Shown here piece after piece: positions 25,004 through 36,053 of a stretch of 64,000 nucleotides of DNA. The translations under genes were made by a program, and so were the position numbers. The stretch covers positions 55,405 through 119,404 of the forward strand of contig SEFT01000011.1 of the NCBI GenBank assembly GCA_004144175.1, written 5' to 3'. The notes below the pieces were generated by a model. It saw nothing but the letters and a program-made list of their open reading frames with translations, had not been told where the DNA came from and ran no database searches. Numbering within the stretch: position 1 is the first letter of the stretch; the number at the start of each line of letters is the position of its first letter. The DNA comes from Sphingobacteriales bacterium. GTDB lineage: Bacteria; Bacteroidota; Bacteroidia; Chitinophagales; Chitinophagaceae.

Positions 25004-25022
25004 ATGCTATAAAGTATAGCAT
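25004..25022. promoter_or_regulatory. Palindromic candidate operator upstream of the AhpD-like operon
   Basis: ATGCTATA-aag-TATAGCAT perfect inverted repeat ending 42 nt before the ATG. Confidence 0.35.
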
Positions 25023-25064
25023 AGCCAATAAGTAATGTTATTTTTATAAAGATCAACCCTTTTT

Positions 25065-25634
25065 ATGCGGAATACGATTTATAAGCTTACGGAGTATGAC
25101 CAGGCTACCCCCGGCGTACAGAACATATATGATGAGTCGAAAAGGATGCTGGGCCTGCCCTTTGTGCTCAACTGGATAAAATGCCAGGGCAGCAACGAAG
25201 ACCTGTTGACGGGTAATTGGACAAAGCTAAAGAACACGCTCATAGTAGGCAAAGTACCCAATATCCTCAAACAGCTTATTATTTACAATGTTTCGGCTAA
25301 GAAGGGATGCGACTATTGCAGCCAGGCCCATGGAATATTTGCCAATATGATGGGCAAATCGATGCATAGCGACACTGATTTTAAGATAACGGAGAACCTG
25401 GAAACAGAACTGGTACCTAAAAGCTACCGTACTGCCATCAGGGTTGTTACCAATGCAGCGCTGGCGCCTGCAAGCATTACCGACAAGGATGTGGAAGACT
25501 TGCAAGATGCAGGATTCTCAGAAGGAGAGATAACAGAGCTACTTGCACAGGCCGACCTTGTGAACATGCTCAATACTATAGCCGATATATCGGGCATTAA
25601 AATTGACAGCGAACTGCTGGAAATGGCCAACTAA
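25065..25634 (+). CDS. AhpD/carboxymuconolactone-decarboxylase-like protein with CxxC
   Basis: LKQLIIYNVSAKKGCDYCSQAH core; C-terminal DVEDLQDAGFSEGEITELLA..DLVNMLNTIAD. Confidence 0.85.
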   Translation: MRNTIYKLTEYDQATPGVQNIYDESKRMLGLPFVLNWIKCQGSNEDLLTGNWTKLKNTLIVGKVPNILKQLIIYNVSAKKGCDYCSQAHGIFANMMGKSMHSDTDFKITENLETELVPKSYRTAIRVVTNAALAPASITDKDVEDLQDAGFSEGEITELLAQADLVNMLNTIADISGIKIDSELLEMAN

Positions 25635-26488
25635 TGCCAGGCATTACAGATCATTCGGGCCCCGACATTGCGGCGCTCCGATACCGCGTTGTATATGAAG
25701 CGCTAGCAAGGCTTAGCTGCAATATCAATAAAAGCGAAGCGGTTAGTGAACTAAGGGATTGTATACACTCCGACCTCAAGTACCTATTCGACAGTGTAGC
25801 TGTACGCTTCCTGGTGACGGGTTCGCGGCAAATGAATACCTTTTCGATAGGGGCTAACGAGCGTACCGAAAAAGTATTTTCGCGCGAAGTAGAGTCTATC
25901 CGGTTTTCATTTGAAAAACAGGCTGCCGAAAGCCTGACCCCACAGCTAATAGACGGGAATGAGGCAGTTGAAAACGCTATCGGTGTATTCGTAAGTGAAG
26001 ACTTTCTGCAAAAGGTAGATGCTATTTGGGTTTTCTCCTTTGCCATACATGGCTTGTCGCTGGTGGCGTCGGTATATTCCGGGCCTGACCATAAATTTCG
26101 CAACACCGACATTGCTATCTTGAAGATCGTTTGCGAATCATTTTTGGCTAAGATATATAGCCTCGAACTGGTGCATGAGGCTGTGCTCGTACGGACCGAT
26201 CTGGAAGAAGCGGTAGTAAAAATTACCAGGCTGGTGAGTGAGCAGGAACTAATTATCCAACAACGCACCGAACAATTGCAGCTACGCAATGACCAGCTTA
26301 GCGAAATTGGCCAATTTAACGCCCATAATATACGCGAACCTCTGACACGCATATTTGGCCTGCTGGAGCTAAGCAAGATATCATCGCAGGACGAGACAAC
26401 AAATGACCTACTTCCACTGCTGTACAAATCATCGACCGACCTGGATGAAGCTGTAAAAAATGTAATTACTTTTATAGACGAAAAGTAA
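25634..26488 (+). CDS. GAF-like domain + coiled coil + histidine phosphoacceptor (HisKA), no ATPase domain
   Basis: TAATG overlap with the upstream gene; GAF-end helix KFRNTDIAILKIV; H-box NAHNIREPLTRIFGLL; ends after the second DHp helix. Confidence 0.8.
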   Translation: MPGITDHSGPDIAALRYRVVYEALARLSCNINKSEAVSELRDCIHSDLKYLFDSVAVRFLVTGSRQMNTFSIGANERTEKVFSREVESIRFSFEKQAAESLTPQLIDGNEAVENAIGVFVSEDFLQKVDAIWVFSFAIHGLSLVASVYSGPDHKFRNTDIAILKIVCESFLAKIYSLELVHEAVLVRTDLEEAVVKITRLVSEQELIIQQRTEQLQLRNDQLSEIGQFNAHNIREPLTRIFGLLELSKISSQDETTNDLLPLLYKSSTDLDEAVKNVITFIDEK

Positions 26489-26514
26489 TTGTCAGCTAGA
26501 AATATCACCACAAC

Positions 26515-26880
26515 ATGGAGGCAAGGAAAATAATGCTGGTAGATGATGAGCCCATCACCAACATGATAAACAAAAGAATGCTTCAGCACCAAAATCCTGC
26601 ACACGAAATTTTAGATTTTACGGATCCGGAAAAGGCTTCCAAAGAACTTAGCGGTATAGCGCCTGATATCATCTTCCTCGACATCAACATGCCCGTAATG
26701 AATGGCTGGCAGTTTCTCGAGGCAATGGAACGACAGCAACTACTCTACCCTGTAATAATGCTGACCAGCAGTACCAGCCAAACTGATAAAGAAAGAAGCA
26801 AGCAACACTCCAACATCAAAAAATTCCAATCTAAACCATTGAGGATCGAAGACCTGCCGACGCTGTTTGATGGTATTTAG
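26515..26880 (+). CDS. Single-domain response regulator (receiver)
   Basis: MLVDDE, IFLDINMPVMNGWQFL, MLTSS, SKP. Confidence 0.93.
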   Translation: MEARKIMLVDDEPITNMINKRMLQHQNPAHEILDFTDPEKASKELSGIAPDIIFLDINMPVMNGWQFLEAMERQQLLYPVIMLTSSTSQTDKERSKQHSNIKKFQSKPLRIEDLPTLFDGI

Positions 26881-26977: not shown

Positions 26978-27652
26978 CTAATTGCTTATAATGAACTCAA
27001 TAGAGTTTAAAGCCCGCATTACAGCATCCGGCGCTTGACATCTTATATCTGAAATTAAAACCTTATCACCATCGACCAGTTGCTGAAACCCTTTTTTCGT
27101 TTTGGTTGTGAAGACGGCGCCTTGCAGGCTTTCAGCATATATAGTGTTTCCCTTTCTTATTATGGCAATGGTTGCTTTGGTAACAGAAAATCTCATATCA
27201 AAATCGTAACAGGTCAACCTTGTAACTATGCCTTCTTGTGCCTGTAATACAGCCTTTGATATAACCCCACCCATTTTGCCGGCAACTGTAGCTTCAGGAT
27301 CCGGAACCTGTTTAACCCTAAACTCAGTAGTACCAAGGTGCTTTGCTGATTTTTTTTCGCTTATCGCTATCGACATCCGTCCATGCTTCTCGGGATATAT
27401 CAGGTAGCTACATTTGTCGCTACCCATTTCTACCTTGCCATTATCAACGGCTATAGTAAGTGCGTCGCATTTATAACCTTCAACGGCTATATTAATTGGG
27501 TTAGGTACACCAAGATACACGACATTCATCCTTGCGTTAGACACTACCATTCTCTGCGACTGAGCAACCAATGGCACAAAGCCCATCAAGACTGTTCCAA
27601 TAATTAAGATCTTTAGAATCCTCTTAGTAAGTGATGAAATGAGTTGCGGCAT
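26978..27652 (-). CDS. GldM-family protein with C-terminal domains only
   Basis: SNARMNVVYLGVPNPINIAVEG and EFRVKQVPDPEA resemble GldM/PorM distal domains; short signal-like N-terminus. Confidence 0.75.
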   Translation of the reverse strand: MPQLISSLTKRILKILIIGTVLMGFVPLVAQSQRMVVSNARMNVVYLGVPNPINIAVEGYKCDALTIAVDNGKVEMGSDKCSYLIYPEKHGRMSIAISEKKSAKHLGTTEFRVKQVPDPEATVAGKMGGVISKAVLQAQEGIVTRLTCYDFDMRFSVTKATIAIIRKGNTIYAESLQGAVFTTKTKKGFQQLVDGDKVLISDIRCQAPDAVMRALNSIEFIISN

Positions 27653-27764
27653 ATAAATAAAGTTACAAGTAGCTTCTCGATTTACGTATAGGAGACACCT
27701 CCTAATATAGACTTGCACTTGAAACGTTGTAAATAACTCATTGAAAATCTTATTTTTGGGCACT

Positions 27765-28445
27765 ATGCAGAATAACACGACAGACATTGATGAAGCGGTG
27801 GCTATCATCGAGCGCATATCTGTGGTGCCGGTGATACTGGAGATCGTATGCTATGTAACGGGCATGGGCTTCGCTGCCGTAGCACGCGTAACACAAGACA
27901 GGTGGATAGCCTGTGATGTACGCGACCTGATATGCTTCGGCCTGAAGCGGGGTGGCGAGTTAAAAATAGACACTACGCTGTGTAATGAGATCCGCGATAG
28001 CCGTACCGCCATCATTATAGACCATGTGGTGAATGATGCTGAGTACTGCGGCCACCACACGCCGGCTACTTATGGGCTCCAAAGCTATATATCTGTACCT
28101 ATTATCCTTGCTGATAACGATTTTTTTGGTACGCTTTGCGCCATTGACCCTAATCCCGCCAAACTAAAGAACAGCGCTATACCTGAGCTATTCAGCGCAT
28201 ATGCAGATCTTATAGCCTTCCTGATAGATGCAGTACGGCTGAACCCCGGTGCTGCAACGCAACTGCGCCAGCGTGCTGTAATGTCGCTGAGGGCACATCT
28301 TGTGAACACTACCGGCCATACAATGGAGCGCCATACCCATAACGGCAACAATGGCGAAGTATCAAGCGTACCGCTCGATGAGGTAATAACTAAGGCTGTG
28401 GCAGATGTAAGAGCCCTATCGAAATCTTTGAGCGCTGCGATATAA
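27765..28445 (+). CDS. Stand-alone GAF domain protein
   Basis: TGMGFAAVARVTQDRWIAC, TTLCNEIR, HHTPATYGLQSYISVPI, FFGTLCAIDP; no kinase core follows. Confidence 0.85.
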   Translation: MQNNTTDIDEAVAIIERISVVPVILEIVCYVTGMGFAAVARVTQDRWIACDVRDLICFGLKRGGELKIDTTLCNEIRDSRTAIIIDHVVNDAEYCGHHTPATYGLQSYISVPIILADNDFFGTLCAIDPNPAKLKNSAIPELFSAYADLIAFLIDAVRLNPGAATQLRQRAVMSLRAHLVNTTGHTMERHTHNGNNGEVSSVPLDEVITKAVADVRALSKSLSAAI

Positions 28446-33716: not shown

Positions 33717-35504
33717 CTAGGATGCTATTGAATACGTTTTTTCTACAATCTTATGTATAATACAATCTAGCTCAAGAGCATTAGTTTGAAGCGTATCGAG
33801 ATATGGCGTCGTTTCATGGCTGTTAAGCGATGTATTGATAAGTATATCTACAATACCCATGATATTGGCTAATGGCCTTCTTACTTCGTGAGATTGTATA
33901 AATGCAATCTCCCTCAATACACGGTTCTGCTCTGTAAGATGAGCCATAGCTTTCTTCAGCTTTCTTTGGTTTTTCTTTCGCTCTGTAACATCCCGCGAGT
34001 TGACTATGATTCCTTGTACCACCTCGTCATTCAGCATATTGGTACATATGGTTTCAACCCAGTGCCATCTATTGTCTCTGTCCTTAAATCTGAATTCGTG
34101 TAGCTTCAGCTCCTTGCTGGTAGCTACGTTGGCCAGTTCTGATTTTGCTCTTTCGATATCCTCCTTATGAATAAAATCCAGCGCGTTTTGTCCTAGTAGT
34201 TCTTCGCTGGTATAACCAAATATCTGCGACACGTTGTTGCTGATAAACTTGTAGGCACCTCTTTCGTCAATAATGCCTACCATATCTGCGCCCTTGTTAA
34301 TTAGCGCCATAAACCGGCGTTCGGCTAGTTCTCTCTTCAACTCGGCCTCGTGTAAAGCGGTAGCATCTCTGCCAACGCAAAACATAGTACGCTTCTCAAC
34401 ATCCCACCTTGCCGACCATAAAATATGAACCAACCGGCCGTCTTTTGCCACGAGTCTGTTTTTGAAAGCTGTTATGTTGTTTCCGTCCGTGATGCCGGCT
34501 GTAACGTCTTCTGTTTTCAGCAAATCGGCTGGCGATACAAAATTGGAAAAATGCCTGCCTTCCATATCTTCCGGCTCAAGCCCCAGTATTGAAATCACCG
34601 AGTCGCTTACTGAGGTATAGTAACCGTTGGCATCTACAGTTGCAATGATATCGGGCGACGAATGAATAATGGCTTGCAACTTGTCCGTACTTTCCTGAAG
34701 CAACCTTTCCTTTTCCTCCAGTATTCTGTTCTTTTCCTCTATCTCTTTCATCTGCATCTTAACTGCAGTTATATCGTGTGAGTGCCCGGCTACGCCTACT
34801 ATTTGCATATCGGCACCGTCCTTTATCGGGTTCAGGGTAAGCTCGATGTAATGCGCCTGCCCAGACGCTGGAAACTCAATGAAGTCTTCCTGCACTACGG
34901 TTTCTCCGTTCAAAGCTCTGCCGTAGAGTTCCCGCCATTTTTGCGATTCGGCCTCATCCCCCAGATCAAGCACGCAGTCGCCAATATCAATCGATAAGCC
35001 TGTGTATAAACGTATATTTTGCCGGAAAGTACTGTTTGCGGCAAGCAGACAGCCGTTGCGGTCGATGGACCAAATTGCATCGGACGAGGCATTAATGATC
35101 GCTTCCTGTTGGTTCTTCTGATAGCTGACTGTTTCACTTAGCTTTTTTCTAGCTGTCATATCTTCCAGGAAAATAGACAGGCCATTTTCTGAGGGATATG
35201 TCTTAACTCGTACCCAAAGATCATTCGGCTCGTAGTACTGTTCCAGCTCTGTAGCAACATTTTGCTGCTTCGAACGCAGATATTCGCAGTGAAAAATAGT
35301 ATTTACTGCTTCGGGGAATACTTGCCATAGGTTATGGCCAAGTACTTCCGCTTTTGGTCGATTCAGAATTTTTTCTGCTGCACTGTTCCAGTAAAGTACT
35401 TTCCAGTCGTTATCTACATAACAGAACCCGTCAGAAATAGATTCCAATATGCTCTCTACCACCGACATACCCGATGGTTGGTTATCCAAATATCCCTTTA
35501 TCAT
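33717..35504 (-). CDS. Multi-PAS protein ending in HisKA, no ATPase domain
   Basis: About four PAS repeats (YWNSAAE, AANSTF, SVSDSV, FISNNV); H-box QSHEVRRPLANIMG; stop about 45 aa later. Confidence 0.9.
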   Translation of the reverse strand: MIKGYLDNQPSGMSVVESILESISDGFCYVDNDWKVLYWNSAAEKILNRPKAEVLGHNLWQVFPEAVNTIFHCEYLRSKQQNVATELEQYYEPNDLWVRVKTYPSENGLSIFLEDMTARKKLSETVSYQKNQQEAIINASSDAIWSIDRNGCLLAANSTFRQNIRLYTGLSIDIGDCVLDLGDEAESQKWRELYGRALNGETVVQEDFIEFPASGQAHYIELTLNPIKDGADMQIVGVAGHSHDITAVKMQMKEIEEKNRILEEKERLLQESTDKLQAIIHSSPDIIATVDANGYYTSVSDSVISILGLEPEDMEGRHFSNFVSPADLLKTEDVTAGITDGNNITAFKNRLVAKDGRLVHILWSARWDVEKRTMFCVGRDATALHEAELKRELAERRFMALINKGADMVGIIDERGAYKFISNNVSQIFGYTSEELLGQNALDFIHKEDIERAKSELANVATSKELKLHEFRFKDRDNRWHWVETICTNMLNDEVVQGIIVNSRDVTERKKNQRKLKKAMAHLTEQNRVLREIAFIQSHEVRRPLANIMGIVDILINTSLNSHETTPYLDTLQTNALELDCIIHKIVEKTYSIAS

Positions 35505-35669: not shown

Positions 35670-36053
35670 ATGGAATTTATTGTAATAGACGACGACAGAA
35701 CTGTTCAAATGCTTAGTAAAGCCATCATATTGAGAGTAGCTACCGGTGCCAACGTTGTGCCCTTTTTAGACCCTTATGATGGGCTAGAATACATCAATAA
35801 AGAGCTCTCAACAACTACGCGAAAATGCATCGTGCTGCTGGATATCAATATGCCGGGAATGAATGGATGGGAACTACTGCAAAAGATAAACAGCGACGTG
35901 CTAGCAAAGCAACATTATATCTATATATACTCCTCCTCTATCGACCAGAAAGATAAGCAACGGGCAGACGAACATGCAGGAGTAGCTGGCTTTATAGAAA
36001 AACCCCTAACGCTGGATAAAGTGCAGTTGCTGCTTCAAACTGCGGCTCAATAG
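35670..36053 (+). CDS. Single-domain response regulator (receiver)
   Basis: VIDDD, LLDINMPGMNGWELL, YSSS, IEKPL. Confidence 0.93.
   Translation: MEFIVIDDDRTVQMLSKAIILRVATGANVVPFLDPYDGLEYINKELSTTTRKCIVLLDINMPGMNGWELLQKINSDVLAKQHYIYIYSSSIDQKDKQRADEHAGVAGFIEKPLTLDKVQLLLQTAAQ

Follow-up and report, generated by a model that had tools for sequence, protein, structure and literature searches.

In a 64-kb stretch of DNA from a Sphingobacteriales bacterium (64,000 nucleotides (nt) of contig SEFT01000011.1; "the window" in the following), three co-oriented genes encode a small AhpD/CMD-fold protein (CMD, carboxymuconolactone decarboxylase) with a CxxC motif, a protein in which a GAF-like input domain is joined via a coiled coil to a DHp hairpin with phospho-accepting histidine (gene 2), and a CheY-like single-domain receiver (gene 3). 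Here, it is proposed, with a probability of roughly 60%, that the first two of these proteins make up a conserved cytoplasmic sensor of two proteins, of which the AhpD-like one would perceive a signal and act on the GAF-like domain of its partner, the sensor as a whole feeding interchangeable outputs. All three genes are located on the + strand (25065-25634, 25634-26488 and 26515-26880, respectively), and inspection of the open reading frames (ORFs) bore out what had been noticed beforehand from the DNA letters alone (in the following, the original prediction): the genes are co-oriented, and the CMD-like gene overlaps the next start, its stop codon TAA sharing bases with the ATG of gene 2 in the TAATG at 25632-25636.

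The pairing of the two genes was followed across genomes and metagenomes in a census centred on the CMD gene and comprising orthologues of at least about 49% and up to 76% identity. For the genome part, 78 loci were fetched using the CMD protein as query, two of which end right after the CMD gene, leaving 76 loci whose mapped ORFs were searched with hidden Markov models (HMMs) derived from gene 2 (N-terminal domain, hereafter N-domain; DHp; ATPase part) as well as with the receiver. In all 76 of them, the next same-strand gene after the CMD orthologue, at a distance of 1-110 nt, encodes the N-domain. An independent metagenome sample, fetched by alignment of diverse CMD orthologues, afforded 49 loci, 43 of which extend 300 nt or more on the downstream side, and an N-domain gene is located 3' of the CMD orthologue in each of these 43 as well. 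In total, the CMD/N-domain pair is present in 119 of 119 evaluable loci and the pairing is, within this census, obligatory. The genome loci derive from Flavobacteriaceae, Sphingobacteriaceae, Spirosoma and other Cytophagales, and one Puniceicoccaceae bin. About 64 of them carry a short form of gene 2 (274-297 amino acids (aa)), followed, usually with a 4-nt overlap, by a receiver of 119-134 aa. Looking up the loci from the side of gene 2 gave the full triad for proteins P0004 (L079) and P0002 (L132) and a CMD gene upstream of P0190 (L081).

While the N-domain stays the same, the part fused to it does not. With the CMD gene verified upstream, four different outputs were found, namely a DHp-only protein plus receiver, a full kinase, a hybrid kinase-receiver and a SpoIIE/PP2C phosphatase. 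The DHp-only output with receiver, as seen in the window, accounts for about 100 loci. Full kinases (HisKA plus HATPase_c) occur in loci L021, L044, L054, L058, L061, L065-L068, L070, L118, L121 and L123; in ten genome loci from Cyclobacteriaceae, Roseivirgaceae, Thermoflexibacter, Catalinimonas, and Cytophagales or Sphingobacteriales metagenome-assembled genomes (MAGs), this form comprises 426-492 aa with N-domain, coiled coil, HisKA and complete HATPase_c, and no receiver gene follows. In case of the hybrid kinase P0190, a gene of 202 aa ends 14 nt upstream, the product of which is 49% identical to the CMD protein of the window and carries the motifs KCQG, LKQLI and GCKYCTFLH. Finally, in metagenome locus L105 (3995-5871), the CMD orthologue is followed 2 nt later by an N-domain (E = 1.3e-16) fused to a SpoIIE/PP2C phosphatase; this module feeds an output of the partner-switching type, not His-Asp signalling. 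The original prediction had regarded recurrent adjacency of CMD homologues to the same GAF-like domain with different outputs as the mark of a sensor module, and homologues standing mostly without signalling neighbours as contrary to it. The former, which is also what an accessory sensor would be expected to display, is what the 119 loci with their four verified outputs exhibit.

The N-domain family itself is small. When the N-domain by itself was used as a HMMER profile to search 1.84 billion representative proteins exhaustively (E <= 0.001), only 188 clusters were returned; the domain is N-terminal in essentially all of them, and the proteins group into length classes. Among the long ones, Pfam scans identified hybrid kinases with receiver (P0175, P0186, P0190, P0202 and P0216), PAS-kinases (P0205, P0222), a protein with Hpt and HATPase (P0233) and a fusion to STAS (P0191), all of these except P0190 being known from protein sequences alone.

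The CMD-like gene (25065-25634, + strand) encodes a protein of 189 aa, the proposed sensory subunit, which scores above the gathering cut-off of the Pfam CMD family (PF02627; 25.6 bits, cut-off 23) and matches TIGR01926 with E = 4.7e-13 and 49.3 bits, under the curated cut-off of 81.8. Its AlphaFold model, calculated with 26 orthologues, is all-helical with a predicted local distance difference test score (pLDDT) of 90.5, and is superposed by Foldseek on the solved structures 6k40, 2oyo, 2prr and 3c1l with template modelling (TM) scores of 0.77-0.82. Among the structural matches is also the debrominase Bmp8 (6ohj, TM 0.75), while the closest solved relative by sequence is AhpD from D. radiodurans (PDB 6k40, E = 3.7e-8). 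In AhpD-like enzymes, the proton relay consists of Glu-x11-Cys-x-Tyr/His-Cys-x3-His, in which Glu or His deprotonates (PMC3141380). The catalytic part C-x-[Y/H]-C-x3-H is present in the CMD protein as C82-D-Y84-C85-S-Q-A-H89 (C82 to C85, 25308-25319; H89, 25329-25331) within the motif GCDYCSQAH at residues 81-89. At the site of the proton-relay Glu (or His), however, 12 residues ahead of the first Cys, Gln70 (25272-25274) is found in 75 of 75 orthologues and in all rows of a 26-row sample, and the aligned residue of 6k40 is Glu. In the alignment of the 75 genome-locus orthologues, C40 (25182-25184), Q70, C82, Y84 and C85 are invariant, H89 is kept in 74, and the C-terminal helix AQADLVNMLNTIADISGIKID is nearly invariant, so that the subfamily can be described by the signature Q-x11-C-x-Y-C-x3-H plus the extra cysteine C40. 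Since four of the five relay residues are kept but the base is gone, a slow thiol switch would fit this protein better than an efficient peroxidase, as judged from the residues. The CMD subfamily is a sequence family without matching Pfam or NCBIfam definition, and the CMD protein of the window shares 58-76% identity with public proteins from Flavobacteriaceae, Spirosoma, Cytophagales and others; overall, CMD proteins share 50-76% identity versus 17-37% for their partners. Rare variants are C40Y together with C82S in L121 (1809-2369), C40Y in L122 (3044-3634) and H89Y in L061 (5998-6558); the joint loss of C40 and C82 in L121 is a hint that both cysteines may work together.

Public records list the protein as 'carboxymuconolactone decarboxylase family protein' or 'AhpD family alkylhydroperoxidase', and these names as well as the close relationship to D. 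radiodurans AhpD would suit an ordinary antioxidant gene, i.e., a peroxidase or AhpC-reductase-type enzyme merely co-transcribed with, or regulated by, its two-component neighbours. Such an explanation appears improbable, as the relay Glu is gone and the pairing, seen in 119 of 119 loci, persists with kinase, hybrid-kinase and PP2C outputs. Additionally, no AhpC or peroxiredoxin gene was noted in the annotated neighbourhoods, which were not searched systematically, save for a SCO1/SenC protein in L065, and the receiver contains no DNA-binding output and would therefore not regulate the operon directly.

The partner protein, gene 2, comprises 284 aa, and its AlphaFold model (pLDDT 90) is confident throughout. 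It consists of an alpha/beta domain (residues 12-150), a long helix (159-247) and a return helix (252-283). The GAF-like input domain was delimited by AlphaFold and Foldseek to residues 1 to ~158 (25634-26110, + strand) and displays the hallmarks of the GAF fold, a mixed beta-sheet with flanking helices and then a signalling helix. Its Foldseek matches, with a probability of 1.0 and a target TM of about 0.6-0.7, include the GAF domains of Lcd1, PtsP and NifA as well as ligand domains of the LuxR type. No Pfam or NCBIfam model, GAF included, matches the N-domain of gene 2 in the window, and the sole match to a GAF model is a weak one to GAF_2 (E = 0.0056) in the relative from L082. Conserved positions are R18, Y21, E22, K49, E94, P103, D159 and K173; conserved cysteines are absent from the N-domain, compared to three in the CMD partner. 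Neither transmembrane segments nor signal peptides were seen in the CMD protein or gene 2, and both models are compact soluble folds. The names of the signalling partner in public records are generic ('histidine kinase dimerization/phospho-acceptor domain-containing protein', 'histidine kinase', 'hypothetical protein').

The fold of the N-domain brings in the main rival explanation, according to which the two proteins are coupled by a metabolite: the AhpD-fold protein would be an enzyme, e.g., a thiol-dependent reductase, dehalogenase or decarboxylase, whose substrate or product is the ligand of the GAF-like domain, with no need for protein contact. This would agree with the best structural matches of the N-domain, which are ligand-binding GAF domains and the autoinducer domains of LuxR and TraR, with the enzyme-like level of conservation of the CMD protein including its C-x-Y-C-x3-H motif, and with a fold family that holds enzymes of other chemistry such as the debrominase Bmp8. 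It is nevertheless considered rather unlikely, although less so than an antioxidant function, because the whole CMD subfamily carries Gln in place of the general-base Glu, no transporter or pathway genes accompany the pair, the neighbours of which vary by lineage, and substrate sensors are normally found without a strict gene order and near-zero spacing across phyla and four outputs.

In the proposed two-protein sensor, the AhpD-like protein would perceive the signal, in all likelihood as the thiol/disulfide or adduct state of its cysteines or, alternatively, as a bound small molecule, and would dock on the GAF-like domain, which in turn would relay the change via its C-terminal helix to the fused output. 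In the window, this output would be a DHp-only 'half kinase' that is incapable of autophosphorylation, binds the adjacent single-domain receiver and sets its phosphorylation either by reversible His-Asp phosphotransfer or by sequestration. Phosphoryl groups would have to be supplied from elsewhere, be it by another kinase, by a separate ATPase subunit, or by acetyl phosphate via the receiver. That the CMD protein contacts the GAF-like domain is inferred here, as are the signal that it senses and the way in which phosphoryl groups move, and the CxxC protein may, as had been suggested in the original prediction, gate phosphotransfer or phosphatase activity.

Several observations weigh against this proposal. 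GAF and LuxR-type folds usually bind small molecules, by which the coupling could run via a metabolite. The retention of four of the five AhpD relay residues along with very high conservation would also suit a working enzyme. Among the 150 best N-domain proteins, in which the domain starts at residues 1-36, no fusion of CMD and N-domain was found. From the side of gene 2, the pairing has one exception, P0003 (L133), where a transposase ORF and no CMD gene is located upstream of the N-domain gene, and the Pelobium locus L001 possesses no adjacent receiver. Furthermore, no HATPase_c-like ORF was detected in the 64-kb window by use of our own HMM, and no phosphodonor was identified. As for the exceptional locus L133, its upstream ORF (1-540) is of the IS3 transposase type and lies 184 nt 5' of the gene-2 orthologue on a contig that is too short to see further upstream.

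The output part of gene 2, coiled coil and DHp hairpin (26108-26488, + strand), contains the phospho-accepting His231 (26324-26326) in the H-box NAHNIREPL, and the hairpin is formed by the helices 159-247 and 252-283. The only Pfam match of gene 2 is a sub-threshold HisKA hit (residues 230-280, 20 bits versus a cut-off of 26.9), and no HATPase match was obtained with Pfam. An ATPase domain is lacking since the chain stops after the DHp hairpin, 53 residues past His231; the HATPase_c domain of HisKA kinases with its N, G1 and G2 boxes is thus missing here but present in the long-form relatives. Pfam, AlphaFold and Foldseek thereby back the description of gene 2 in the original prediction as a GAF-like domain, a coiled coil and an H-box with no HATPase domain. 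Across the short forms, the His is retained in 99 of 99 sequences, and the proteins uniformly end 53-70 residues past it. The residue following the His (H+1) is non-acidic in 95 of the 99 (N in 79, S in 9, T in 5, K in 2), while H+4 is Glu in all 99; in contrast, the ATPase-bearing relatives carry Asp or Glu at H+1 in 15 of 15 cases. According to Willett and Kirby, an acid at H+1 is specifically needed for kinase activity and Thr or Asn at H+4 for phosphatase activity (PMC3510030). Gene 2 of the window, with Asn at H+1 and Glu at H+4, has neither, and by these criteria the short form would be neither a canonical kinase nor a canonical phosphatase, with the phospho-acceptor preserved. As the kinase and phosphatase residues are absent and the His is kept, reversible phosphotransfer with the receiver, or mere receiver binding, remains as its probable role.

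A further possibility is that gene 2 simply is a decayed, truncated histidine kinase, i.e., a pseudogene or annotation artefact, and the module non-functional. The missing HATPase_c domain and the HisKA score below the Pfam cut-off would be explained that way, and two Mesonia loci do look fragmented: in M. aestuariivivens (L072) and M. mobilis (L073), the matches to CMD, N-domain and DHp are split over short ORFs and appear pseudogenised. The conservation pattern, however, effectively refutes this possibility, as far as can be read from the proteins: the 99 short forms share a uniform end and an invariant His and H+4 Glu, the next gene encodes a receiver and usually overlaps by 4 nt, and the AlphaFold model of gene 2 is confident over its whole length. 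Moreover, the short forms represent one well-supported group over several families. In a maximum-likelihood tree of 66 non-redundant sequences, all 43 short forms included were found on one side of a branch with a Shimodaira-Hasegawa-like approximate likelihood ratio test (SH-aLRT) support of 100, which is consistent with a single origin, though the split between short and long forms may be partly driven by the DHp because its columns were included in the alignment.

The receiver (gene 3; 26515-26880, + strand; 121 aa) matches Response_reg at full length (E = 1.5e-18, residues 6-116) and contains D10/D11, D56, T84 and K107, in agreement with the earlier view of a lone receiver with an intact pocket. 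A receiver gene follows the short form in nearly all loci. The ATPase-less DHp noticed in the original prediction is thus real; it is not special to the CMD module, however, as it is found behind PAS and membrane sensors as well. The window itself contains a second ATPase-less protein (33717-35504, - strand) with four PAS domains and a DHp (H-box QSHEVRRPL) that ends ~55 residues past the His, and divergently from it a similar single-domain receiver (35670-36053, + strand); hence, such DHp-only/receiver pairs recur in the genome, combined with more than one kind of sensor domain. L079 encodes a PAS-DHp protein of 275 aa, and L131 (4001-5065) a membrane-anchored DHp-only protein with H-box YNSHNIREPLTRIMG, the DHp of which is 48% identical to that of the window. 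As this latter protein comes without CMD gene or adjacent receiver, shuffling appears to have placed the DHp-only cassette behind different sensor domains. Protein P0005 was rejected as a family member, since this DHp-only protein is of another kind: its N-terminus is a membrane region, and a CMD gene is missing.

The control of an adjacent kinase by a separate sensor protein in the cytoplasm is an already known principle, with H-NOX/HnoK (HnoX-HnoK), PII-NtrB and NreA-NreB as examples. As in H-NOX/HnoK, a small soluble sensor is encoded beside, and co-oriented with, a signalling protein lacking any other obvious input, and one sensor family is paired with different outputs across genomes. Unlike there, the sensor would be of the AhpD/CMD fold with a CxxC motif instead of a haem- or nucleotide-binding fold, and its partner, the contact to which is only deduced, always bears a dedicated GAF-like adaptor. 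Sestrins are eukaryotic AhpD-fold proteins used for sensing; they are large and two-lobed and sense leucine for mTORC1. By analogy only, they share with the CMD protein the recruitment of an AhpD-type fold to signalling rather than bulk detoxification, with no detectable sequence relationship between the two.

With the AhpD-like 'peroxidase-related' proteins (TIGR01926; 6k40, 2oyo, 2prr, 3c1l; PA0269, PMC3141380), the CMD subfamily has in common the all-helical fold and the C-x-Y-C-x3-H hairpin motif of PA0269. It differs from them in scoring below the TIGR01926 cut-off (49 versus 82 bits), in the replacement of the relay Glu by Gln, and in the extra, almost always conserved Cys40 and the nearly invariant C-terminal helix. 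Its obligatory signalling partner is likewise undescribed for the solved TIGR01926-type relatives. Gene 2, in turn, resembles the incomplete or split kinases (R. sphaeroides CheA3/CheA4; PMC3591291) and the DHp-type phosphotransferases Spo0B and ChpT in that a phospho-accepting helical domain has no ATPase on the same chain, and it stands beside a single-domain receiver. No partner ATPase subunit of the kind known from split kinases was found near gene 2 in the 64-kb window, however, and the HE/DxxN/T motif, which flags bifunctional split kinases (PMC3591291), is absent from the short forms because their H-box reads H-N-x-x-E. In contrast to Spo0B and ChpT, gene 2 carries no degenerate remnant of a catalytic and ATP-binding (CA) domain. 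HisKA proteins without HATPase make up 3.66% of the HisKA proteins in SMART (PMC3591291) and have been termed incomplete kinases in a 2026 preprint (10.64898/2026.02.27.708494). The half kinase therefore belongs to a known yet uncharacterised class, and what is new here is the AhpD-like partner with its private GAF-like domain; full-text literature searches returned no publication in which an AhpD/CMD protein is paired with the input domain of a kinase.

Going one step further, at odds that we would call about even, the base-disabled AhpD-fold protein could represent a new class of stand-alone sensor that responds in the cytoplasm to redox state, electrophiles or a small ligand, reports via a private GAF-like adaptor plugged into His-Asp, hybrid-phosphorelay and partner-switching (PP2C, STAS) outputs and, in Flavobacteriia and Sphingobacteriia, feeds an ATPase-less DHp/receiver pair. 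If true, it would correspond to H-NOX in function but use a peroxidase scaffold, in the way that sestrins do in eukaryotes. For most two-component and partner-switching systems of bacteria, the input signal is unknown, and soluble accessory sensors such as H-NOX are among the few cases that allow it to be traced by biochemistry. With a cysteine-bearing protein of 190 residues and an adaptor of 160 residues, paired across abundant marine and soil Bacteroidota, the module would offer a direct route to cytoplasmic sensing. At the same time, the ATPase-bearing and ATPase-less forms of one sensor constitute a natural experiment that bears on the role of HisKA proteins without ATPase. The CMD subfamily and the GAF-like domain also mark an annotation gap, being two families outside current Pfam and NCBIfam models.

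Beyond the pair or triad, no wider conserved operon could be defined and this idea was rejected, as the neighbours vary by lineage. In Flavobacteriaceae, these are GH3, CTP synthase and a QSregVF_b protein; the latter, in L023 (7806-8039), comprises 78 aa (PF12843, E = 2.6e-27) and directly follows the receiver, and ORFs of ~77-80 aa fill this position in most Flavobacteriaceae loci, with none in the window. In Thermoflexibacter ruber (L065, 5176-7835), a STAS anti-anti-sigma-like protein and an RsbW-like HATPase_c_2 kinase are encoded directly 5' of the pair of CMD protein and full kinase, and the SCO1/SenC thiol-redox protein mentioned above just 3' of it on the opposite strand. Elsewhere, TonB receptors, MurB and GldM-like proteins were found. 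The module is not confined to Bacteroidota. The hybrid-kinase forms of L081 and L082 are located on high-GC contigs with a DUF1501 neighbour. The Puniceicoccaceae MAG of L071 (Verrucomicrobiota) contains a complete short triad, which may be due to horizontal transfer or a binning error. Apparent overlaps of CMD and N-domain in L071 and L111 arise only because an ORF extends upstream in a different frame.

Upstream of the CMD start, at a distance of 42 nt, lies the palindrome ATGCTATA-AAG-TATAGCAT (25004-25022), a perfect 8-N3-8 repeat in the divergent intergenic region common to the CMD gene and a GNAT gene. It had been pointed out in the original prediction and is indeed real and perfect, yet unexceptional and unconserved: for arms of 8 bp and spacers of 0-10, there are 50 perfect palindromes in the window, among them six with a spacer of 3, and the palindrome is not conserved at the corresponding place in L079 and L001, the orthologous loci closest to this one. 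For these reasons, it was rejected as evidence for an operator. Opposite gene 2, an antisense ORF of 317 aa (25651-26604, - strand) is a shadow ORF and most likely no gene. Two genes 3' of the triad, a stand-alone GAF protein of 234 aa without output domain (27741-28445, + strand; Pfam GAF E = 1e-9) is encoded, which in other genomes is outside the conserved module. The module is adjoined by a protein with the third and C-terminal domains of GldM (26978-27817, - strand), and in L079 (324-2360) by GldM domains plus GldN; these may be paralogues of gliding/type IX secretion system (T9SS) proteins.

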